Source: a virus
Lineage: Duplodnaviria > Caudoviricetes
IMG/VR virus record: IMGVR_UViG_3300030372_002666
Span: 1 to 36,463 of that record
Length of the DNA stretch: 36,463 bases
Reading direction: 5' to 3' (one strand)
The notes under the pieces were generated by a model that searched no databases, had not been told where the DNA came from, and worked only from the letters and a program-made list of their open reading frames with translations. Made by a program: the position numbers and the translations under genes. Below are positions 9,013-35,800 of the stretch, piece by piece (within the stretch, counting starts at the first letter, position 1; each line of letters begins with the position of its first letter).

Positions 9013-9291
9013 ATGAAACAAAACTATTTAGTCAAACAAGCTGTAAAGCATTTAGAAAACGCATTTTCTGAAATTAGCGAACTTATTGACATTTTAGATA
9101 ATTCTGATGACATTTTAAATCATATATCGGAAAAAAATAACCTTACTGATAATATACAAATATCAATAGAGAATATTCGATATAATATGGAAGATATTCA
9201 CTATCATATTCAAAATAATATCGATGAAATAAAACAGGATCAGAATTTACCATTATTAAATAAAGTATTAATAACAAAAGGGAGTAAATAA
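9013..9291 (+). CDS. Hypothetical acidic helical protein (first early gene)
   Basis: ORF track; GGAG SD. Confidence 0.7.
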   Translation: MKQNYLVKQAVKHLENAFSEISELIDILDNSDDILNHISEKNNLTDNIQISIENIRYNMEDIHYHIQNNIDEIKQDQNLPLLNKVLITKGSK

Positions 9292-9293
9292 CA

Positions 9294-10073
9294 ATGACTA
9301 AACACTATAAGGGGAAACTACTAAGTCCACCTAATATCAATATAAAAGCGATGAAAAATCTAGCCTTAAAAGTTCACACCTATTTTTTAAGCCTTGCTCC
9401 GAGTGATACCTCGGGCTTTAATGTTTGTGCAATGGCTAACAGGGTTAGCATAAATGAAAAAAACCCTAATAAATCAAATTGTAGTTATGTTTGTGTTGCT
9501 CATAACGGGAACGGGCGTTTTGAGGTAGTCGAAAAAGCTAGAATACGAAAAACTAGAAAATTCTTTCTAGATAGAGATAATTTTCTTATTGAGTTAGTTC
9601 AGGATATTTTCAAGGCTATTGAATACTCAAAGTATTATGGATTTGAACCTACATTTCGATTAAACGCATATAGTGATTTACCATTTGAAAGAATTAAAAT
9701 TAAATCTTTTGGGAATTGTACTATTCAAGAGCTTTTTCCAGATGTTACATTTTACGATTATTCAAAAGTGCCCAATAGGAAAACACCAAACAATTATGAA
9801 TTAACTTATTCACATTGGGGAAAGTGGGAAACTACAAACGATCAAATTAAAAAAGGTTATAATGTAGCGATGGTATTCAATACAAATAATGATAAAAACG
9901 CAAAACTCCCGACTACATTTAACAATTTAAAAGTAATTGACGGTGATAAAACAGATTTGAGAACAATGCAAAATGATGGTAAAAATACAATTGTTGGCTT
10001 AAGGGCGAAAATGTCACAGGCTAAAATTCAAAAGGAATTGAATGAAAAAAATCCATTTGTAGTCAATCCTTAA
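9294..10073 (+). CDS. GP88-family phage protein (three conserved Cys, radical-SAM-like)
   Basis: SLAP..SGFNVC, CSYVC, RLNAYSD, FYDYSK, LTYS, NVAMVF, VIDGDKTDLR and IVGLRAK motifs. Confidence 0.75.
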   Translation: MTKHYKGKLLSPPNINIKAMKNLALKVHTYFLSLAPSDTSGFNVCAMANRVSINEKNPNKSNCSYVCVAHNGNGRFEVVEKARIRKTRKFFLDRDNFLIELVQDIFKAIEYSKYYGFEPTFRLNAYSDLPFERIKIKSFGNCTIQELFPDVTFYDYSKVPNRKTPNNYELTYSHWGKWETTNDQIKKGYNVAMVFNTNNDKNAKLPTTFNNLKVIDGDKTDLRTMQNDGKNTIVGLRAKMSQAKIQKELNEKNPFVVNP

Positions 10074-10268: not shown

Positions 10269-10407
10269 GTTTGTGCTTATTGAAAATTGATTAAAAATAA
10301 GGCTCAAATTTAGCGATTCTCGGTCGTTTTTTAGGTTAGGCAATAGTGACTTAAGCTAAAAAATAAAATGGCTTTTTTGAGCATTTTAAAAGATTTAAAT
10401 ATCTTAT

Positions 10408-10525
10408 TGAGAATAAGTCTCATTATCATATTTTTGAGAATGAATCTCAATAAAAACCCTATTGAGAATGAGTCTCAATAGCAAAAATAGATAAATCAAA
10501 TATTTCATAATGAGAATGAGTCTCA
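10408..10525. repeat. Four 15-bp imperfect palindromes TGAGAAT-N-A(G/A)TCTCA (Fur-box-like)
   Basis: Copies start at 10408, 10435, 10463 and 10511. Confidence 0.85.
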
Positions 10526-10577
10526 TTTATATTTATGCTTTATATTTTTGCTTTATATTTTTGGTGTATATTTTAGA
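10526..10577. repeat. Four tandem AT-rich 13-mers
   Basis: TTTATATTTATGC TTTATATTTTTGC TTTATATTTTTGG TGTATATTTTAGA. Confidence 0.85.
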
Positions 10578-10587
10578 AATTATAAAA

Positions 10588-10640
10588 TTGTTAAAAATTT
10601 AACAAAAAAAACTTGACTTTTATTTTAAATGTTATAAAAT
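10588..10640 (+). promoter_or_regulatory. Promoter with upstream TTGTTAA-N4-TTAACAA palindrome
   Basis: Palindrome 10588-10605, 7 nt gap, then TTGACT(10613)-16-TAAAAT. Confidence 0.6.
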
Positions 10641-10686: not shown

Positions 10687-11289
10687 ATGTCTAATAAAAA
10701 TGGTAAACCAGTTACAGTATCACTAACAAAAGTAAAAGACTCAGAAGTTAAAAAGTTTTTTACCGATGGTGTTCAGCTTCAAAAATTAACTAAGAATATG
10801 ACTCAGTTAATTAAGCGTGACTTTTTTCATAGAGATAAAAAAACCAATACCACTAAGCTAACAAATGAACTTGATCGTATATTGGCTAATAAAGACCCTA
10901 GATCACAAAAAAGAATAGCTAATGTAAAGGTATTTGTTAGAAAACAGTTGCAGACTATTATAAAAACAAAACAAACTCAGCAAGTGTTATTAGGCGAGTT
11001 AGTTAATGTTAGACAAGTAACAATGAAAAAAGTGACTCAGCCAATGATTGATGATGTTAATAATGAAAGATTCGTAGGTAAATTTCATCAAGATGACTTA
11101 GGTAAGTTTAGGGTAGTTGAAGAAAAGAAAGAGAAAAAAGTAAATGATCTTGATCTTTGGAAAGATTTAACAGAATTAATTGACAAGCATTCAGTAGATA
11201 CCTCTATTATAAGAAATACTTGTGATGATCTTGATCAAGGTATATTTTCATTTGAACAAAAGGAGAGTAAGCATAGAAAAGTAGCATAG
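10687..11289 (+). CDS. Hypothetical basic protein
   Basis: 200-aa ORF with strong GAGGAG SD. Confidence 0.8.
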   Translation: MSNKNGKPVTVSLTKVKDSEVKKFFTDGVQLQKLTKNMTQLIKRDFFHRDKKTNTTKLTNELDRILANKDPRSQKRIANVKVFVRKQLQTIIKTKQTQQVLLGELVNVRQVTMKKVTQPMIDDVNNERFVGKFHQDDLGKFRVVEEKKEKKVNDLDLWKDLTELIDKHSVDTSIIRNTCDDLDQGIFSFEQKESKHRKVA

Positions 11290-11312: not shown

Positions 11313-11351
11313 ACCATTAAGCCGACTCATATAGTCGGCTTTTTGGGTGCA
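11313..11351 (+). other. Hairpin-T-tract-GGGT element, copy 2
   Basis: ACCA.TAAGCCGACT-CATAT-AGTCGGCTT-TTT-GGGTGCA. Confidence 0.7.
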
Positions 11352-11521
11352 GAGCCGATACAAGGTGAAAAGTAAATCTATGGAAATGTGTGAAAGACTC
11401 TAGAAGTAGAGTGTGCCAATTTAAGATTGGACAGAGCGTAAGGAATAGAGCCTTGTTGCCCCTCTTAACAATGGGTAAAATGGTAGATTAATAATCGAGG
11501 GTTCGACTCCCTCTCGGCTCA
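11352..11521 (+). ncRNA. tRNA-like structured RNA with greatly expanded D-arm
   Basis: Acceptor GAGCCGA(11352-58)/TCGGCTC(11514-20) plus A11521; T-arm GAGGG-TTCGACT-CCCTC (11497-11513); T8-A9; CAAGG/CCTTG stem; TTGCCC/GGGTAA stem; no long ORF. Confidence 0.8.
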
Positions 11522-11557
11522 CAAGATTATATTAAATAATAAAAGGAGAGAAAAACA

Positions 11558-11785
11558 ATGATGATATTAAATTATAAATCAAAAAAGCAGTTGAAGGAAT
11601 CTGTTGGACAACCATTAGATTATACTGAGACTTCATTTTTTGGCAATGAATATAAACCTGATGGCACTTTTTGTGGCTGTAATCGACCTTACTCACCTGA
11701 GTATCCAAAGTTTGAGCAGAGAAAAGGTCGTGAATTTTTTGCTGAAGTAACCATGAAAAATAACAAAATACATAAGGTAAAATAA
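11558..11785 (+). CDS. Phage hypothetical protein
   Basis: ORF track; AAGGAG SD. Confidence 0.8.
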   Translation: MMILNYKSKKQLKESVGQPLDYTETSFFGNEYKPDGTFCGCNRPYSPEYPKFEQRKGREFFAEVTMKNNKIHKVK

Positions 11786-11812: not shown

Positions 11813-11856
11813 ATCCAATTACAAAGCCGATTCATATAATCGGCTTTTGGGGTGCA
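11813..11856 (+). other. Hairpin-T-tract-GGGT element, copy 3
   Basis: AAAGCCGATT-CATAT-AATCGGCTTT-T-GGGGTGCA; compensatory base-pair change relative to copy 2. Confidence 0.7.
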
Positions 11857-11875
11857 AAAACTAAAGGAATTATAA

Positions 11876-14988: not shown

Positions 14989-16665
14989 ATGACTTTTGAG
15001 GAGAACGGCATTTATATCACAGAAACATCAGGAGAGGTACAAACTCAATGTCCTAAATGTTCTAGTAGTAGGAAAAAATCATCTGATCCATGTTTATCAG
15101 TTAATGCAGGAGAGGGGATTTGGTTTTGCCATCATTGTGGATGGAAAGGTGGATTAAAAAAAGTTAAGAACTTAACAAAAAATAATATCGTAAAAATACC
15201 TGACCCACCAAAAACAAATTTACCTGATCAGGTTTATCAATGGTTTGAGGATCGTGGTATTTCTAGGGTAGTAATTGATGCTGAAAAAATAGGATATGAA
15301 AACAGATGGATACAATTCCCATTTTATAAAGATGGTCAAGTAGTTAATATTAAATCAAGAACTGGAGATAAGAAATTTCGACAGTCTAAAAATGCAGAAA
15401 AGTGTTTTTATAGATTTGATTCAATGGTGGGAATGGAAACAATTATTATAACTGAAGGTGAAATGGATGCATTGTCTTTAGTACAATCAGGTTTTACTAA
15501 TGTTGTTTCAGTTCCTGATGGAGCACCAGCTCAAGGAAGTAAACCGAGTGATAAGAAGTTCAGCTACCTACTCTCAGCAGAAGAACATTTAATGAATGCA
15601 GAAACTGTGATATTATGCACGGACTCTGATGGTGCAGGTAAAACCTTGCGTAATGAATTAAGTAGGCGTATAGGGCGTGAAAAATGCTTTAGAGTGGTAT
15701 ATCCTGATGGATGCAAAGATATGAATGATGTCCTGATGAAACATGGAGAGGATAAGGTTCAGGATGTTGTAAGTAATGCTCATCCCTATCCGATAGATGG
15801 TGTTGTAATGGTTCAAGATGTTGAAGATGATGCTATAGATTTATTATTAACACCTGACTCTAAGGGCTTGTCTACTGGTTGGTCAGCAGTTGATCCACAT
15901 TATTTAGTTAGCCCTAGTGAGGTTACAGTAATTACTGGAGTACCTAATATGGGTAAGTCTGAATGGATGGATGCAGTGATGATTAATATGGTTCAGTTAT
16001 ATGGTTGGAAGTTTGGTATATTTTCAGCAGAAAATTTTCCAGTAAAACACCACTTATTGAAATTAGTTGGTAAATTTACAGGTAAACCATTTTGGGGCGA
16101 TGATAGAATGAGTGAGGAAACTGCTAGGAGTTCTATGAAGATATTAAATGATCATATTAAATTTATAGGGACTCAAGAAGATTGTATCACCATAGAGTCT
16201 ATCATGGAACAAGCTAAGATATTAAATTTTAGATTCGGTCTTAATGGTCTTATTGTTGATCCGTGGAATACACTTGAACATAAATTTGGTGATGGGGAAA
16301 ATGAAACTTTATATGTTTCAAGAGTATTATCACAGCTAAGTGCATTTGCTAAAATTAATGAAATGCATATTTGGATAGTTGCTCATCCTAGAAAAATGGA
16401 AAATGGAGTAGACAGAAAACCAGTTGTTCCAAGCCCTTATGATATATCAGGATCAGCTAACTGGTTTAATAAATGCGATAATGCCATTACAGTACATAGA
16501 CATAAATCAGAAGATGAGGATTATGCAGGTATTCATGTGCATAAAATCAGGTTTCAGTATAAAAATGGTAAACCCAATCAGGGGAATCCATGTAAATTAA
16601 AATATGATATTAATAGGGGGAGATATAGTGAATACATCGAAGAATTTAAAGAAAAGCTTTTCTGA
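14989..16665 (+). CDS. Primase-helicase (T7 gp4/Twinkle-like)
   Basis: Zn finger CPKC...CHHC; TOPRIM TEGEMDALS and DSDGAG; Walker A GVPNMGKS; IVDP; VAHPRK; YDISGS. Start placed at the ATG with a GGAG SD rather than the track's 14971. Confidence 0.92.
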   Translation: MTFEENGIYITETSGEVQTQCPKCSSSRKKSSDPCLSVNAGEGIWFCHHCGWKGGLKKVKNLTKNNIVKIPDPPKTNLPDQVYQWFEDRGISRVVIDAEKIGYENRWIQFPFYKDGQVVNIKSRTGDKKFRQSKNAEKCFYRFDSMVGMETIIITEGEMDALSLVQSGFTNVVSVPDGAPAQGSKPSDKKFSYLLSAEEHLMNAETVILCTDSDGAGKTLRNELSRRIGREKCFRVVYPDGCKDMNDVLMKHGEDKVQDVVSNAHPYPIDGVVMVQDVEDDAIDLLLTPDSKGLSTGWSAVDPHYLVSPSEVTVITGVPNMGKSEWMDAVMINMVQLYGWKFGIFSAENFPVKHHLLKLVGKFTGKPFWGDDRMSEETARSSMKILNDHIKFIGTQEDCITIESIMEQAKILNFRFGLNGLIVDPWNTLEHKFGDGENETLYVSRVLSQLSAFAKINEMHIWIVAHPRKMENGVDRKPVVPSPYDISGSANWFNKCDNAITVHRHKSEDEDYAGIHVHKIRFQYKNGKPNQGNPCKLKYDINRGRYSEYIEEFKEKLF

Positions 16666-32891: not shown

Positions 32892-35800
32892 TTATTTCTT
32901 TTCTAATGCTTCTACTTTTGCACTTAATTCTTGCACTGCTTTAATTAATGGAGCTATGAACTGCACATAGTCAGCACCTAAATAATCGCCTTTGTCTGTA
33001 ATGCCAGCAAAATCTTCATTACCACTTTCTTTTAATACTTCCTGTACTTCTTGTGCAATAATACCATATTTTAATTTTTCTGGTTTTTTGTCATCAATAA
33101 ATTTGTAGCTAACAGGTCTAAGTGCATTAACAAATGACAGCCCTAAATCAGAGTCATTTATATTTTCCTTGAGCCTTTTATCTGATGTGTTTATTGTCCC
33201 ATTAGCATACATTTCAGCATCGCCATCTGAAGACATATAAACCTTAGTCACAGACCCATTACCAAGTGTTACTGAGTTGTTTGCTTGTCCAACTGCTCCA
33301 GTTCCTATAGAAATCTGATTATCTGCTGTAGCTGAACTTGTACTTGCTCCATCTCCTATACATACATTAGAAATTCCAGTTGTAATAGCGTTTGAGGCAT
33401 TTCCAGCTCCATAACCAATAAGTGTATTTGAATGAGCTATACCTTCTAAATTGTATCCAGCCAATGCTCCCAACGCACTATTCCCCTCTCCAGTAATTGC
33501 ATTTCCAGACGCTTCTCCCATTACTCCTTCACCAACTCCAGTATTATAATCTGCATTGGTTAAACTCATTCCAGAAGTATTGCCTACAAATGTATTAGAA
33601 ATACCTCCACTTCCAGCTAGGTTTGTTAATGAATTGTAACCGATAGCAATATTTTGCACATTGTGAGTCATATTTGCATCTAAGGCATAATTACCAATAG
33701 CGATATTTTTATTATTTGCCCCAGCATCGGTTCCACCTAAAGCTTCAAAACCTATTGCAATAGAATCATCACAAACATCAGCTTGATATAATGCGTTATG
33801 TCCTATAGCTAAATTTCGACTTCCTGTAGTAAGATTACCTCCTGATTGATAGCCCAATGCCGCATTCCCAGTTCCAGAGGTATTATTAGCTAATGACGCA
33901 TATCCTATTGCAGTAGTTCCACTTGCCGCAGATGTTAAAATTCCTTGTAATGATGCATATCCAACAGCAACACAAAAATTCACATCAGCAGTTGTAAAAG
34001 AACCATTCAGAGCATGAGCACCTATAGCTGTATTGTAATCTGATGCAGTTGTAGCTCTGTGCATTGCACTATATCCAAGTATAGTATTACTTCTTGAAGT
34101 AGTTAATGCTACTCCAGCATTATACCCGATAGCCGTATTTTCAATACCAGTTGTCAATGCACCGAGAGCATTATATCCTATCCCAATCGTTCCTGTATGA
34201 TTATTAGCACCAATAGACTGCATAACTCCAGTACCAATACCAACACATCCAATAACTTCACCAGCTCCAGCCCTTCCAGCAGAATCGCCAATAAAAATAT
34301 TATCTACTGTGGCATTATTATTTAAAGAATCTCCAGCAAAATAACCTATTCCAATATTTCTGGATTCAGTACCATCTAATGCCATTAATGCACCATACCC
34401 TAATGCAACATTTCTATCCCCATCGGTATGATTAAATAATGCTTGATAACCATAAGCAACATTTTTTTCTCCAGTAGTAATGTCAGCACCAGCTTGTTGC
34501 CCAAATAAGCAGTTATAATTCCCCCCACTTGCGATGTCATCTCCAGCTAAATAGCCAAAAATAGTATTGGATGCACCAGCATCATTATTAGTTAGTGAGA
34601 TTCTGGAGTTGTCGTCTAAAATTAATCTTGTACCATTACTTGAACCAGTTTTGAAAACTAATGAGCCTCCAATACTTCCATCGCTTATGCTACCATCATC
34701 AACCTTACCTCTAATACTTGCAACAGATTCATAACTATTACCATCTGAACCTTGAAATGTTATATCCCCAACTTCATCATTATCATTTACAACAGTATGG
34801 CTTCCAATAGTAGTGTTTCTACTTTGCCTTAATCGAATAGATGAACCACTTCCACCAGCAACATGAGAATCTATTAGCATTTGAGCTTCACCAGATTTTG
34901 CTACATGAAGTTCTTTTGCTGGGTTTGTAGTTCCAATCCCGATTTCACCATCATGGTTAATAGCTAAAGCATTTACAGCAGAACCAGCACTATCTTTTGT
35001 TTGAAATAAATATCCTGTTCCATTAGTAACTGCCGCAAAAGTTAAATCAGAAGCATCTCCAGTAACTAAATTATCAATATTAAAATCATATTCTGCAACA
35101 CTTCCTCTTTCAAGCCTCAAAGGGGTTGCTCCACTCACATGAAGAGGTCTGTCTGGAGAGCTAGTTCCAATACCGACATTGCTTCCTTGAATAACCAATC
35201 TTGAGCCCAATGAACCACCGCTTTGAGTTCTAAAATGCATAGTAGCATCTTCTGAACCATCAGATACATCATCGTGATTTACATATATTGTAGCATATTC
35301 AATTTCTTCTGGAGTACCAGCATCATTCATTCCTTTAAATCTTATAACCCCAGAATCATCATTATCATTAGCAGTTCCACTTGTTAAAAATATAAGACCA
35401 CCACCATTTACATTATTTCCAGATTGCTCTATTTTAATGATTGGTTTACCATCAGTAGATGATTTTAAATGCAATAATGCGTCTGGAGAAATTTCTCCGA
35501 TACCAAGCGAACCATTCTGCAAAACAGTTAAAACTTCTGTAGCGGCATTATCGTTTAATAAAGACATCCTACCATCCGTTTGCAACTTAAATTGCATATC
35601 TTTATTACTGCCTGTTTCTTTAAATAATAAAAATGGAGCAGAATCGTCTAATTGAATATCGCCAGAAACATGAAGAGCAACTGAAGGCTGAACACCAATA
35701 CCAAGCAAACCTCCCTCAGTCAATCTCATTAACTCTGTACCACCACCACTTGAACCATTAATACTGAACTCAAAAAATCTATTAGTATCATCATCATCTG

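Follow-up and report, generated by a model that had tools for sequence, protein, structure and literature searches.

The general kind of molecule described here, a tRNA-shaped stable RNA encoded by a phage, is already known from T4 and T5. Phage T4 produces species 1 RNA (rnaC, 139 nt) and species 2 RNA (rnaD, 119 nt), the function of which is stated to be unknown (PMC3014915, PMC9697503). T5 has several RNAs with the annotation "tRNA-like stable RNA with unknown functions," among them RNA1 (144 nt) and RNA2 (125 nt), and the RNAs of both phages are still without an assigned role. Another small phage RNA, the C4 antisense RNA of P1/P7, is a substrate of RNase P (PMC11143913). As for tRNA-Lys itself, PMC12409363 describes the cleavage of tRNA-Lys(UUU) by AriB and PrrC and the countering of AriB by T5 tRNAs through resistance.

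We analyzed a whole virus record of 36,463 bases (the window), which has a G+C content of 32.6% and a completeness rating of 100%. Scanning 46 of its 80 open reading frames (ORFs) identified terminase, capsid, tape-measure, primase/helicase, and endolysin genes. Around the locus of interest lies a series of small ORFs, mostly without annotation, and a 170-nt RNA (Table 1) takes up most of the 268 nt that separate ORFs 10687-11289 and 11558-11785. Two repeats were also seen in the window. The operator-like palindrome TGAGA-N5-TCTCA is present in three copies at 10396-10531, upstream of a promoter-like site at 10613-10640, and positions 1-155, at the contig start, form a direct repeat of ~150 nt with positions 34474-34625 in the tail-spike gene (87-93% identity).

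Table 1. Parts of the tRNA-shaped RNA and elements near it or in relatives of the window phage (window positions unless a contig is named)
Feature	Position	Strand	Remark
Hairpin and short U run, lineage-specific intergenic motif outside the RNA	11319..11351	+	Second copy ~11824-11857; in 5/22 RNA-less relatives
Whole RNA, G1 to discriminator A73, 170 nt	11352..11521	+	Similarity limits ~11351-11529; model R1, 218 bits
Acceptor 5′ strand GAGCCGA with U8 and A9, tRNA-Lys type	11352..11360	+	13/14 stem columns invariant
P2 5′ strand, D-stem position, pairs with 11451-11455	11361..11365	+	100% of cells paired
11-nt internal loop starting UGAAA, facing G11450	11366..11376	+	10/12 columns invariant
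P3 5′ strand UCUAU, pairs with AUAGA 11445-11449	11377..11381	+	10/10 columns invariant, all paired; covariation absent
Purine-rich internal loop (GGAA/AAGGA), P4, exchangeable distal domain	11382..11444	+	
Distal hairpins of the window RNA	11397-11412 and 11416-11430	+	
GGAAUAGAGC, like the D-loop/D-stem 3′ side of tRNA-Lys	11442..11451	+	By-eye comparison with cellular tRNA-Lys sequences
Anticodon-position arm, 6 bp (TTGCCC/GGGTAA) and 11-nt loop CU-CUU-R-A-H-AAU	11456..11478	+	9/11 loop columns invariant
18-nt linker, invariant GGUAG (11482-86), AAUAAUC ending in C48	11479..11496	+	Invariant columns between variable ones
T arm	11497..11513	+	Double changes: two pairs in A2, a third in L249/L268
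Acceptor 3′ strand, A73 (11521), then CAA; CCA not encoded	11514..11524	+	
Shine-Dalgarno-like AAGGAG of ORF 11558-11785	11543..11548	+	22 nt past A73; from sequence
Mini tRNA-like units in relatives	L378 ~9239-9394; L369 9422-9465; L374 9484-9527; L355 from 16768; L365 10339-10383; L423; L425		
Hammerhead-like sequences in relatives	L342 13087, 13741; L350 9879, 10531; L391 8501; L411 ~16028-16101; L399 ~10108; others		

Sequence inspection and folding located every element that a preliminary description of this RNA had listed, and the predicted fold agrees with that description except for a pseudoknot, discussed below. The canonical tRNA traits are a 7-bp acceptor stem (11352-58 paired with 11514-20), U8, a 5-bp T arm, and a 7-nt UUCRANY loop. 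None of 1000 dinucleotide shuffles of the window combined T8 with a 7-bp acceptor and a T arm that were both perfect, and the RNA has a folding z-score of -2.48, with 3 of 200 shuffles equally stable. A D arm with a short GG-containing loop is absent from the family RNAs, which have an arm of 85 nt or 59 nt instead; in the window RNA, P2 (CAAGG/CCTTG) encloses 85 nt. A 7-nt anticodon loop is absent as well, the loop being 11 nt long in all 21 aligned RNAs. The window RNA holds two TGAAA motifs, at 11366 and 11391, the first of which opens an internal loop and is changed in 2 of the 21 aligned sequences. Inspection of the internal loops against the definitions of the K-turn and loop E motifs led us to reject both identities. 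In the linker, 13 of 18 columns are invariant, and A73 is directly followed by CAA in all 21 distinct RNAs, with CGA at one locus. By eye, the segment GGAAUAGAGC resembles the D-loop/D-stem 3′ side of tRNA-Lys; it may be a relic of an ancestral D arm.

The preliminary description had expected that tRNA scanners would probably miss this RNA, and indeed ARAGORN made no call on it in the window and Rfam, including RF00005, was negative. It had also pointed out that a strong match to an existing Rfam family would remove the novelty; the search of the window returned nothing at the gathering score, and by E-value only sub-threshold, weak T-arm matches. In blastn comparisons with annotated phages, every record covered at most 15% of the query. 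A literature search found no description of the RNA; six carrier contig identifiers are absent from four supplement files of PMC10690425, the remaining supplements of which may contain such a motif. The RNA is apparently uncatalogued.

Homologues were collected by pattern scans. The first scan of IMG/VR gave 74 loci with 6 homologues, a pattern for the 3′ part gave 13 homologues out of 13 loci, and further scans added three contigs, for a total of 16. Among 62 loci from the metagenome scan, 26 belonged to the family, five being partial and some identical with IMG/VR contigs. GTDB, scanned with one pattern only, yielded 13 matches and no member, and a diverged cellular homologue may exist. Across the IMG/VR, metagenome, and GTDB scans, members occurred in viral and metagenome contigs only, and six motif patterns run over IMG/VR for distant homologues retrieved none, yielding just the close family along with ordinary tRNAs and chance matches. 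Several homologues sit on TARA contigs, and RNA-bearing sequencing runs are labeled seawater or marine wherever a label exists. Terminase relatives, used to look for the host, are labeled as uncultured viruses only, plus one Bacteroidota-bin label. Altogether, the scans yielded 22 different full-length RNAs, 17 long (170-171 nt) and five short (144 nt), in 26 distinct contexts; the nested pairings are kept, and the T stem and distal hairpins covary. One further candidate, at L441 301-464, was not counted, as it scored 25 bits with model R1 compared with 24.7 for an ordinary tRNA. This RNA is GC-rich, tRNA-shaped, and 164 nt long, shares the acceptor type of the family, and has an insert of ~90 nt and a similar 11-nt loop hairpin; it is possibly a distant analogue.

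The alignment of 21 RNAs has a mean column identity of 92%, which could reflect recent spread rather than constraint. In the nested model as a whole, 99.9% of cells are paired. The T stem shows double changes in two pairs and, in L249/L268, in a third, and L170 has compensatory changes in both distal hairpins, one of which recurs in a run contig; the covariation counts of helix 6 are inflated by alignment of the nonhomologous hairpin of the short forms, and within the long form only L170 counts. The acceptor, P2, and the anticodon-position stem have one-sided changes only (a single A-U to G-U change and no double change in P2), and P3 has no change at all, so that support for these four helices comes from invariance and energy. 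Their single-sequence pairing probabilities vary for P2 and P3 from ~0.1 to 0.9 across versions and lie below 0.5 in about 9 of 22. The proposed pseudoknot between AATCTAT and GTAGATT is complementary in the window but did not survive comparison: 80% of its cells pair, and of its seven pairs three are disrupted, in 2, 20, and 7 of the 21 sequences. The other four compete with P3 for identical bases, making the two helices mutually exclusive, and the nested alternative, 11377-81/11445-49, fits all 21 sequences with 100% of its cells paired. Nor do the two hairpins and the second UGAAA form a fixed functional domain: 5 of the 21 aligned versions carry one different hairpin instead. In this distal domain 7 of 49 columns are invariant, compared with 10 of 12 and 13 of 14 in the internal loops and 9 of 11 in the 11-nt loop; the unpaired loops match the stems in their degree of invariance.

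Two separate marks point to lysine. The Lys-type loop noted in the preliminary description held up across the aligned RNAs as C-U-CUU-R-A, a mark independent of the acceptor, with the position-37 equivalent varying between A and G only. The second mark, which that description lacked, is the acceptor stem. We scanned 696 genomes sampled from six phyla for GAGCC, a T arm, and GGCTC-A, reading the anticodons by eye; 52 of the 54 matching cellular tRNAs were tRNA-Lys, although multiple gene copies and kinship among the genomes mean that these cases are not all independent. By sample, there were 18 matches in 151 genomes (17 Lys, 1 Arg) and none in the 301 genomes of the phylum of G016; samples of 61, 81, and 51 genomes gave 25, 4, and 3 matches, every one of them Lys, and a further 51 genomes gave 4 (3 Lys, 1 Arg). 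Viral contigs also include non-Lys tRNA genes with the GAGCC acceptor, which makes this mark somewhat weaker. In the T5 tRNA region, the top match of model R1 was tRNA-Lys, by a small margin (20.1 versus 18.9 bits).

The limits of the RNA are sharp. Six homologous loci resemble the window at 94-96% within the similarity limits of Table 1 and share at most one further stretch with it, and in a second phage lineage the match to the window ends at the ends of the RNA. The motif GGAAC-N-GT(A/T), which we take to resemble promoters of ECF sigma factors, ends exactly 12 nt before G1 in 23 of the 26 contexts, arguing for a discrete gene. A second copy lies within 20 nt after A73 in 12 of the 26, so the RNA does not have to be the leader of a gene. 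There are 4-5 copies per genome, ahead of early ORFs, and the copy upstream of the RNA is a feature of the second lineage. Contigs from RNA libraries (four runs, low depth) extend across the promoter-like motif and do not mark transcript ends. The preliminary picture of a conserved, discrete, tRNA-shaped noncoding gene with a Lys-type loop is upheld.

G001-G004, the four carriers examined over their full length, represent a lineage other than that of the window. Their terminase, capsid, and primase genes have no match in the window; what they share with it is the tail spike (30-36%) and one 106-aa protein (42-49%), to which G003 alone adds an endolysin match (44%) and G004 alone GP88 (65%). 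G003 has a P22-like portal and an SU10-type capsid. No tRNA gene was found in the window or in G001-G004. Of 80 loci from relatives of the window phage, 22 were long enough for comparison (at least 8 kb beyond the terminase). Since the RNA is absent from all 22 of these close relatives, the window phage probably gained it as a cassette.

How such an RNA might act can be proposed from its predicted structure. We tentatively favor, with slightly less than even confidence, a non-decoding tRNA-Lys mimic that is likely matured by RNase P and acts in trans, as bait for a tRNA-Lys-reading host protein. Its predicted fold combines the tRNA-Lys top half and anticodon arm with a long additional arm. Transcription would be early and start a few nucleotides ahead of G1 or, in the window phage, arise from read-through. 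Host RNase P would cut the 5′ end at G1, and 3′ trimming followed by CCA addition would repair the CAA end. The invariant GGUAG of the linker matches the D-loop of cellular tRNA-Lys genes, and we infer that its GG docks on the T loop in place of a D-loop, forming the elbow of an L shape. P2 and the 6-bp stem, 11 bp together, would place the CUU loop roughly as far from the acceptor end as in a tRNA; its size of 11 nt and the bulky arm would bar it from the decoding site. The 11-nt loop, the missing D-loop, and the CAA end are the reasons to regard the RNA as probably non-decoding. As a guess, the target might be a tRNA-Lys-cleaving defense nuclease of the PrrC or AriB type, or lysyl-tRNA synthetase. 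What is documented for AriB and PrrC sets a precedent as regards the target but not as regards a decoy: their documented targets are tRNA-Lys(UUU), whereas the loop of the family RNA reads CUU, and the documented counter-measure to AriB is a resistant working tRNA rather than bait. We consider it unlikely that all of the following hold at once: a mobile tRNA-Lys decoy serving as an RNA anti-defense factor, binding and inhibition of tRNA-cleaving immune nucleases, an elbow built from a relocated D-loop motif, and a swappable arm.

The main rival is suggested by the hammerhead-like cores, mini units, and hairpin found at early gene boundaries in the relatives. In this somewhat unlikely scenario the RNA is a processing signal in cis: RNase P would cleave the polycistronic early transcript at G1, leaving the tRNA-like fold to cap or release the downstream message. 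Among the 22 relatives, which lack the RNA, the early region has hammerhead-like cores in 10, mini units in 4, and the conserved hairpin in 5; in the window lineage, the RNA occupies the site where relatives have these probable processing signals. Such elements usually sit just ahead of a Shine-Dalgarno sequence, and the window has one shortly after the RNA (Table 1). RNase P is reported to act on phage RNAs and mRNAs (PMC11143913). Nevertheless, a cis signal does not account for the promoter-like motifs that lie directly upstream and, in the 12 contexts, directly downstream, and since ~45 nt suffice for cleavage, the invariant loops and the Lys marks would be unneeded.

The elements of the relatives have features of their own. 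In at least 10 of the 22 relatives, hammerhead-ribozyme-like sequences lie at the boundaries of early genes, and one of them scored 41 bits (E = 7e-6) with the RAGATH-1 hammerhead, below the gathering score. The mini tRNA-like units, 44-45 nt long and mostly just before Shine-Dalgarno sites, consist of a covarying 5-6-bp acceptor, a AAUGGUUU linker, a 6-bp T arm, and a discriminator A; they have no Rfam match at gathering score, and their 5′ GGGYRAAUGG resembles window positions 11473-11483. They are candidate RNase P processing sites. In both window copies of the hairpin, the stem AGCCGA/TCGGCT equals the acceptor stem of the RNA, and behind it come a short T run and GGGTGCA; this hairpin and its copy are candidates for a terminator or an RNase III-like site.

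An atypical but working tRNA-Lys(CUU), charged and decoding directly or after removal of inserts as a nuclease-resistant replacement, would explain the Lys acceptor, A73, U8, C48, the intact T arm, and the CU-CUU-R-A loop. Phage tRNA-Lys genes that bear inserts do exist: L442 and L443 (301-454) carry one that we read by eye as tRNA-Lys(UUU) and that ARAGORN calls as Thr with a 78-nt intron, in which the insert interrupts the anticodon, contains its own T loop, and ends in ACCA. To make a canonical tRNA of the family RNA, however, at least three separate excisions would be needed (the D region, 4 nt of the loop, and ~13 nt of the linker), and it lacks the 5′ D-stem strand of tRNA-Lys, which leaves a working tRNA quite unlikely. 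An intron-containing tRNA that one excision would make canonical was rejected on the same inspection, and ARAGORN allowing introns called none of 14 family loci.

Just as improbable in our estimation is a trans-acting antisense regulator on a tRNA-like scaffold, comparable to C4. Invariant single-stranded segments would suit this role, C4 is a known phage substrate of RNase P, and the loop CUCUU could pair with Shine-Dalgarno sequences. In five carrier genomes, however, no C4-type complementary targets were found in the phage's own transcripts: the longest complements, counted with no shuffle control, were 11-12 nt and in unrelated places, the shared 7-8-mers near the locus were all AU-rich, and Rfam was negative. 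An attP relic or a tRNA-Lys decayed by random insertions, to which the resemblance of the 3′ 25 nt to tRNA-Lys 3′ ends might lead, is very improbable and largely refuted by conservation. Both acceptor strands are retained, the hairpins covary, there are two alternative folded distal domains, and no tyrosine integrase (PF00589) was found in the 10 carriers, of which the window is 100% complete, one other 99%, and most are fragments.

The traits of the family make the role of tRNA-shaped phage RNAs directly testable: it is solitary, has its own promoter-like motif, appears as a precise cassette moved between two lineages, comes in long and short natural forms, and has a readable Lys identity. 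Bacterial anti-phage nucleases attack tRNA-Lys, so that a non-decoding Lys mimic, if it serves as bait, would represent counter-defense of a new kind. The D-loop GG also appears to have been relocated, which would be a new way of building a tRNA elbow.

Compared with known systems, the RNA shares with bacterial tRNA-Lys (RF00005) the GAGCC/GGCUC acceptor, U8, A73, C48, the T arm, and the CU-CUU-RA loop. It differs in its 85-nt arm, 11-nt loop, and 18-nt linker, and in that the D-loop is not in place. Two other classes combine a tRNA top half with an extra domain. tmRNA (RF00023) is characterized by G3-U70 alanine identity, a tag reading frame, and circular permutation, whereas the family RNA has an invariant G3-C70, no room for a tag frame, and no circular permutation, and ARAGORN and Rfam were negative. 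In the Y RNA YrlA the tRNA domain is permuted and the acceptor closed by a loop; in contrast, the acceptor of the family RNA is formed by its two paired ends, with no Rfam match. C4 is, like the family RNA, a small phage RNA, although processing of the latter by RNase P is only inferred. A tRNA-like RNA of another build occurs in L095, L097, L150, L172, L205, and L208; it has a normal D arm, a large branched anticodon-position arm, and GGTAG..AATAAT before the T arm, and lies amid repeated tRNA-like units.

The closest likeness is to the stable RNAs of T4 and T5, whose plan of a tRNA top half, enlarged inner arms, and a length of 120-170 nt the family RNA follows. With rnaC it shares a long arm directly after the acceptor-like strand, a second hairpin, UAAUAA before the T arm, and a genomic A-CAA end. 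However, rnaC is part of a tRNA cluster and reportedly a late RNA, whereas the family RNA is solitary, in an early-type region, and bears Lys marks. RNA1 and RNA2, similar in size, also have a T arm, an acceptor-like closing helix, and enlarged inner arms, but they keep a D-arm-like hairpin, with the next arm enlarged, and are located in a tRNA cluster. Family members score 215-218 bits with model R1, in contrast to 10.7 bits (E 0.5) for rnaC, below T4 tRNA-Leu at 20.8, and 12.5 and 7.4 bits, as partial matches, for RNA1 and RNA2. By this model, no homology of sequence or structure to rnaC, rnaD, RNA1, or RNA2 was detected, all scoring at most 12.5 bits and under ordinary tRNAs. Judged by sequence and predicted fold, the family RNA is thus built like the tRNA-like RNAs of T4 and T5, yet stands outside their sequence families.
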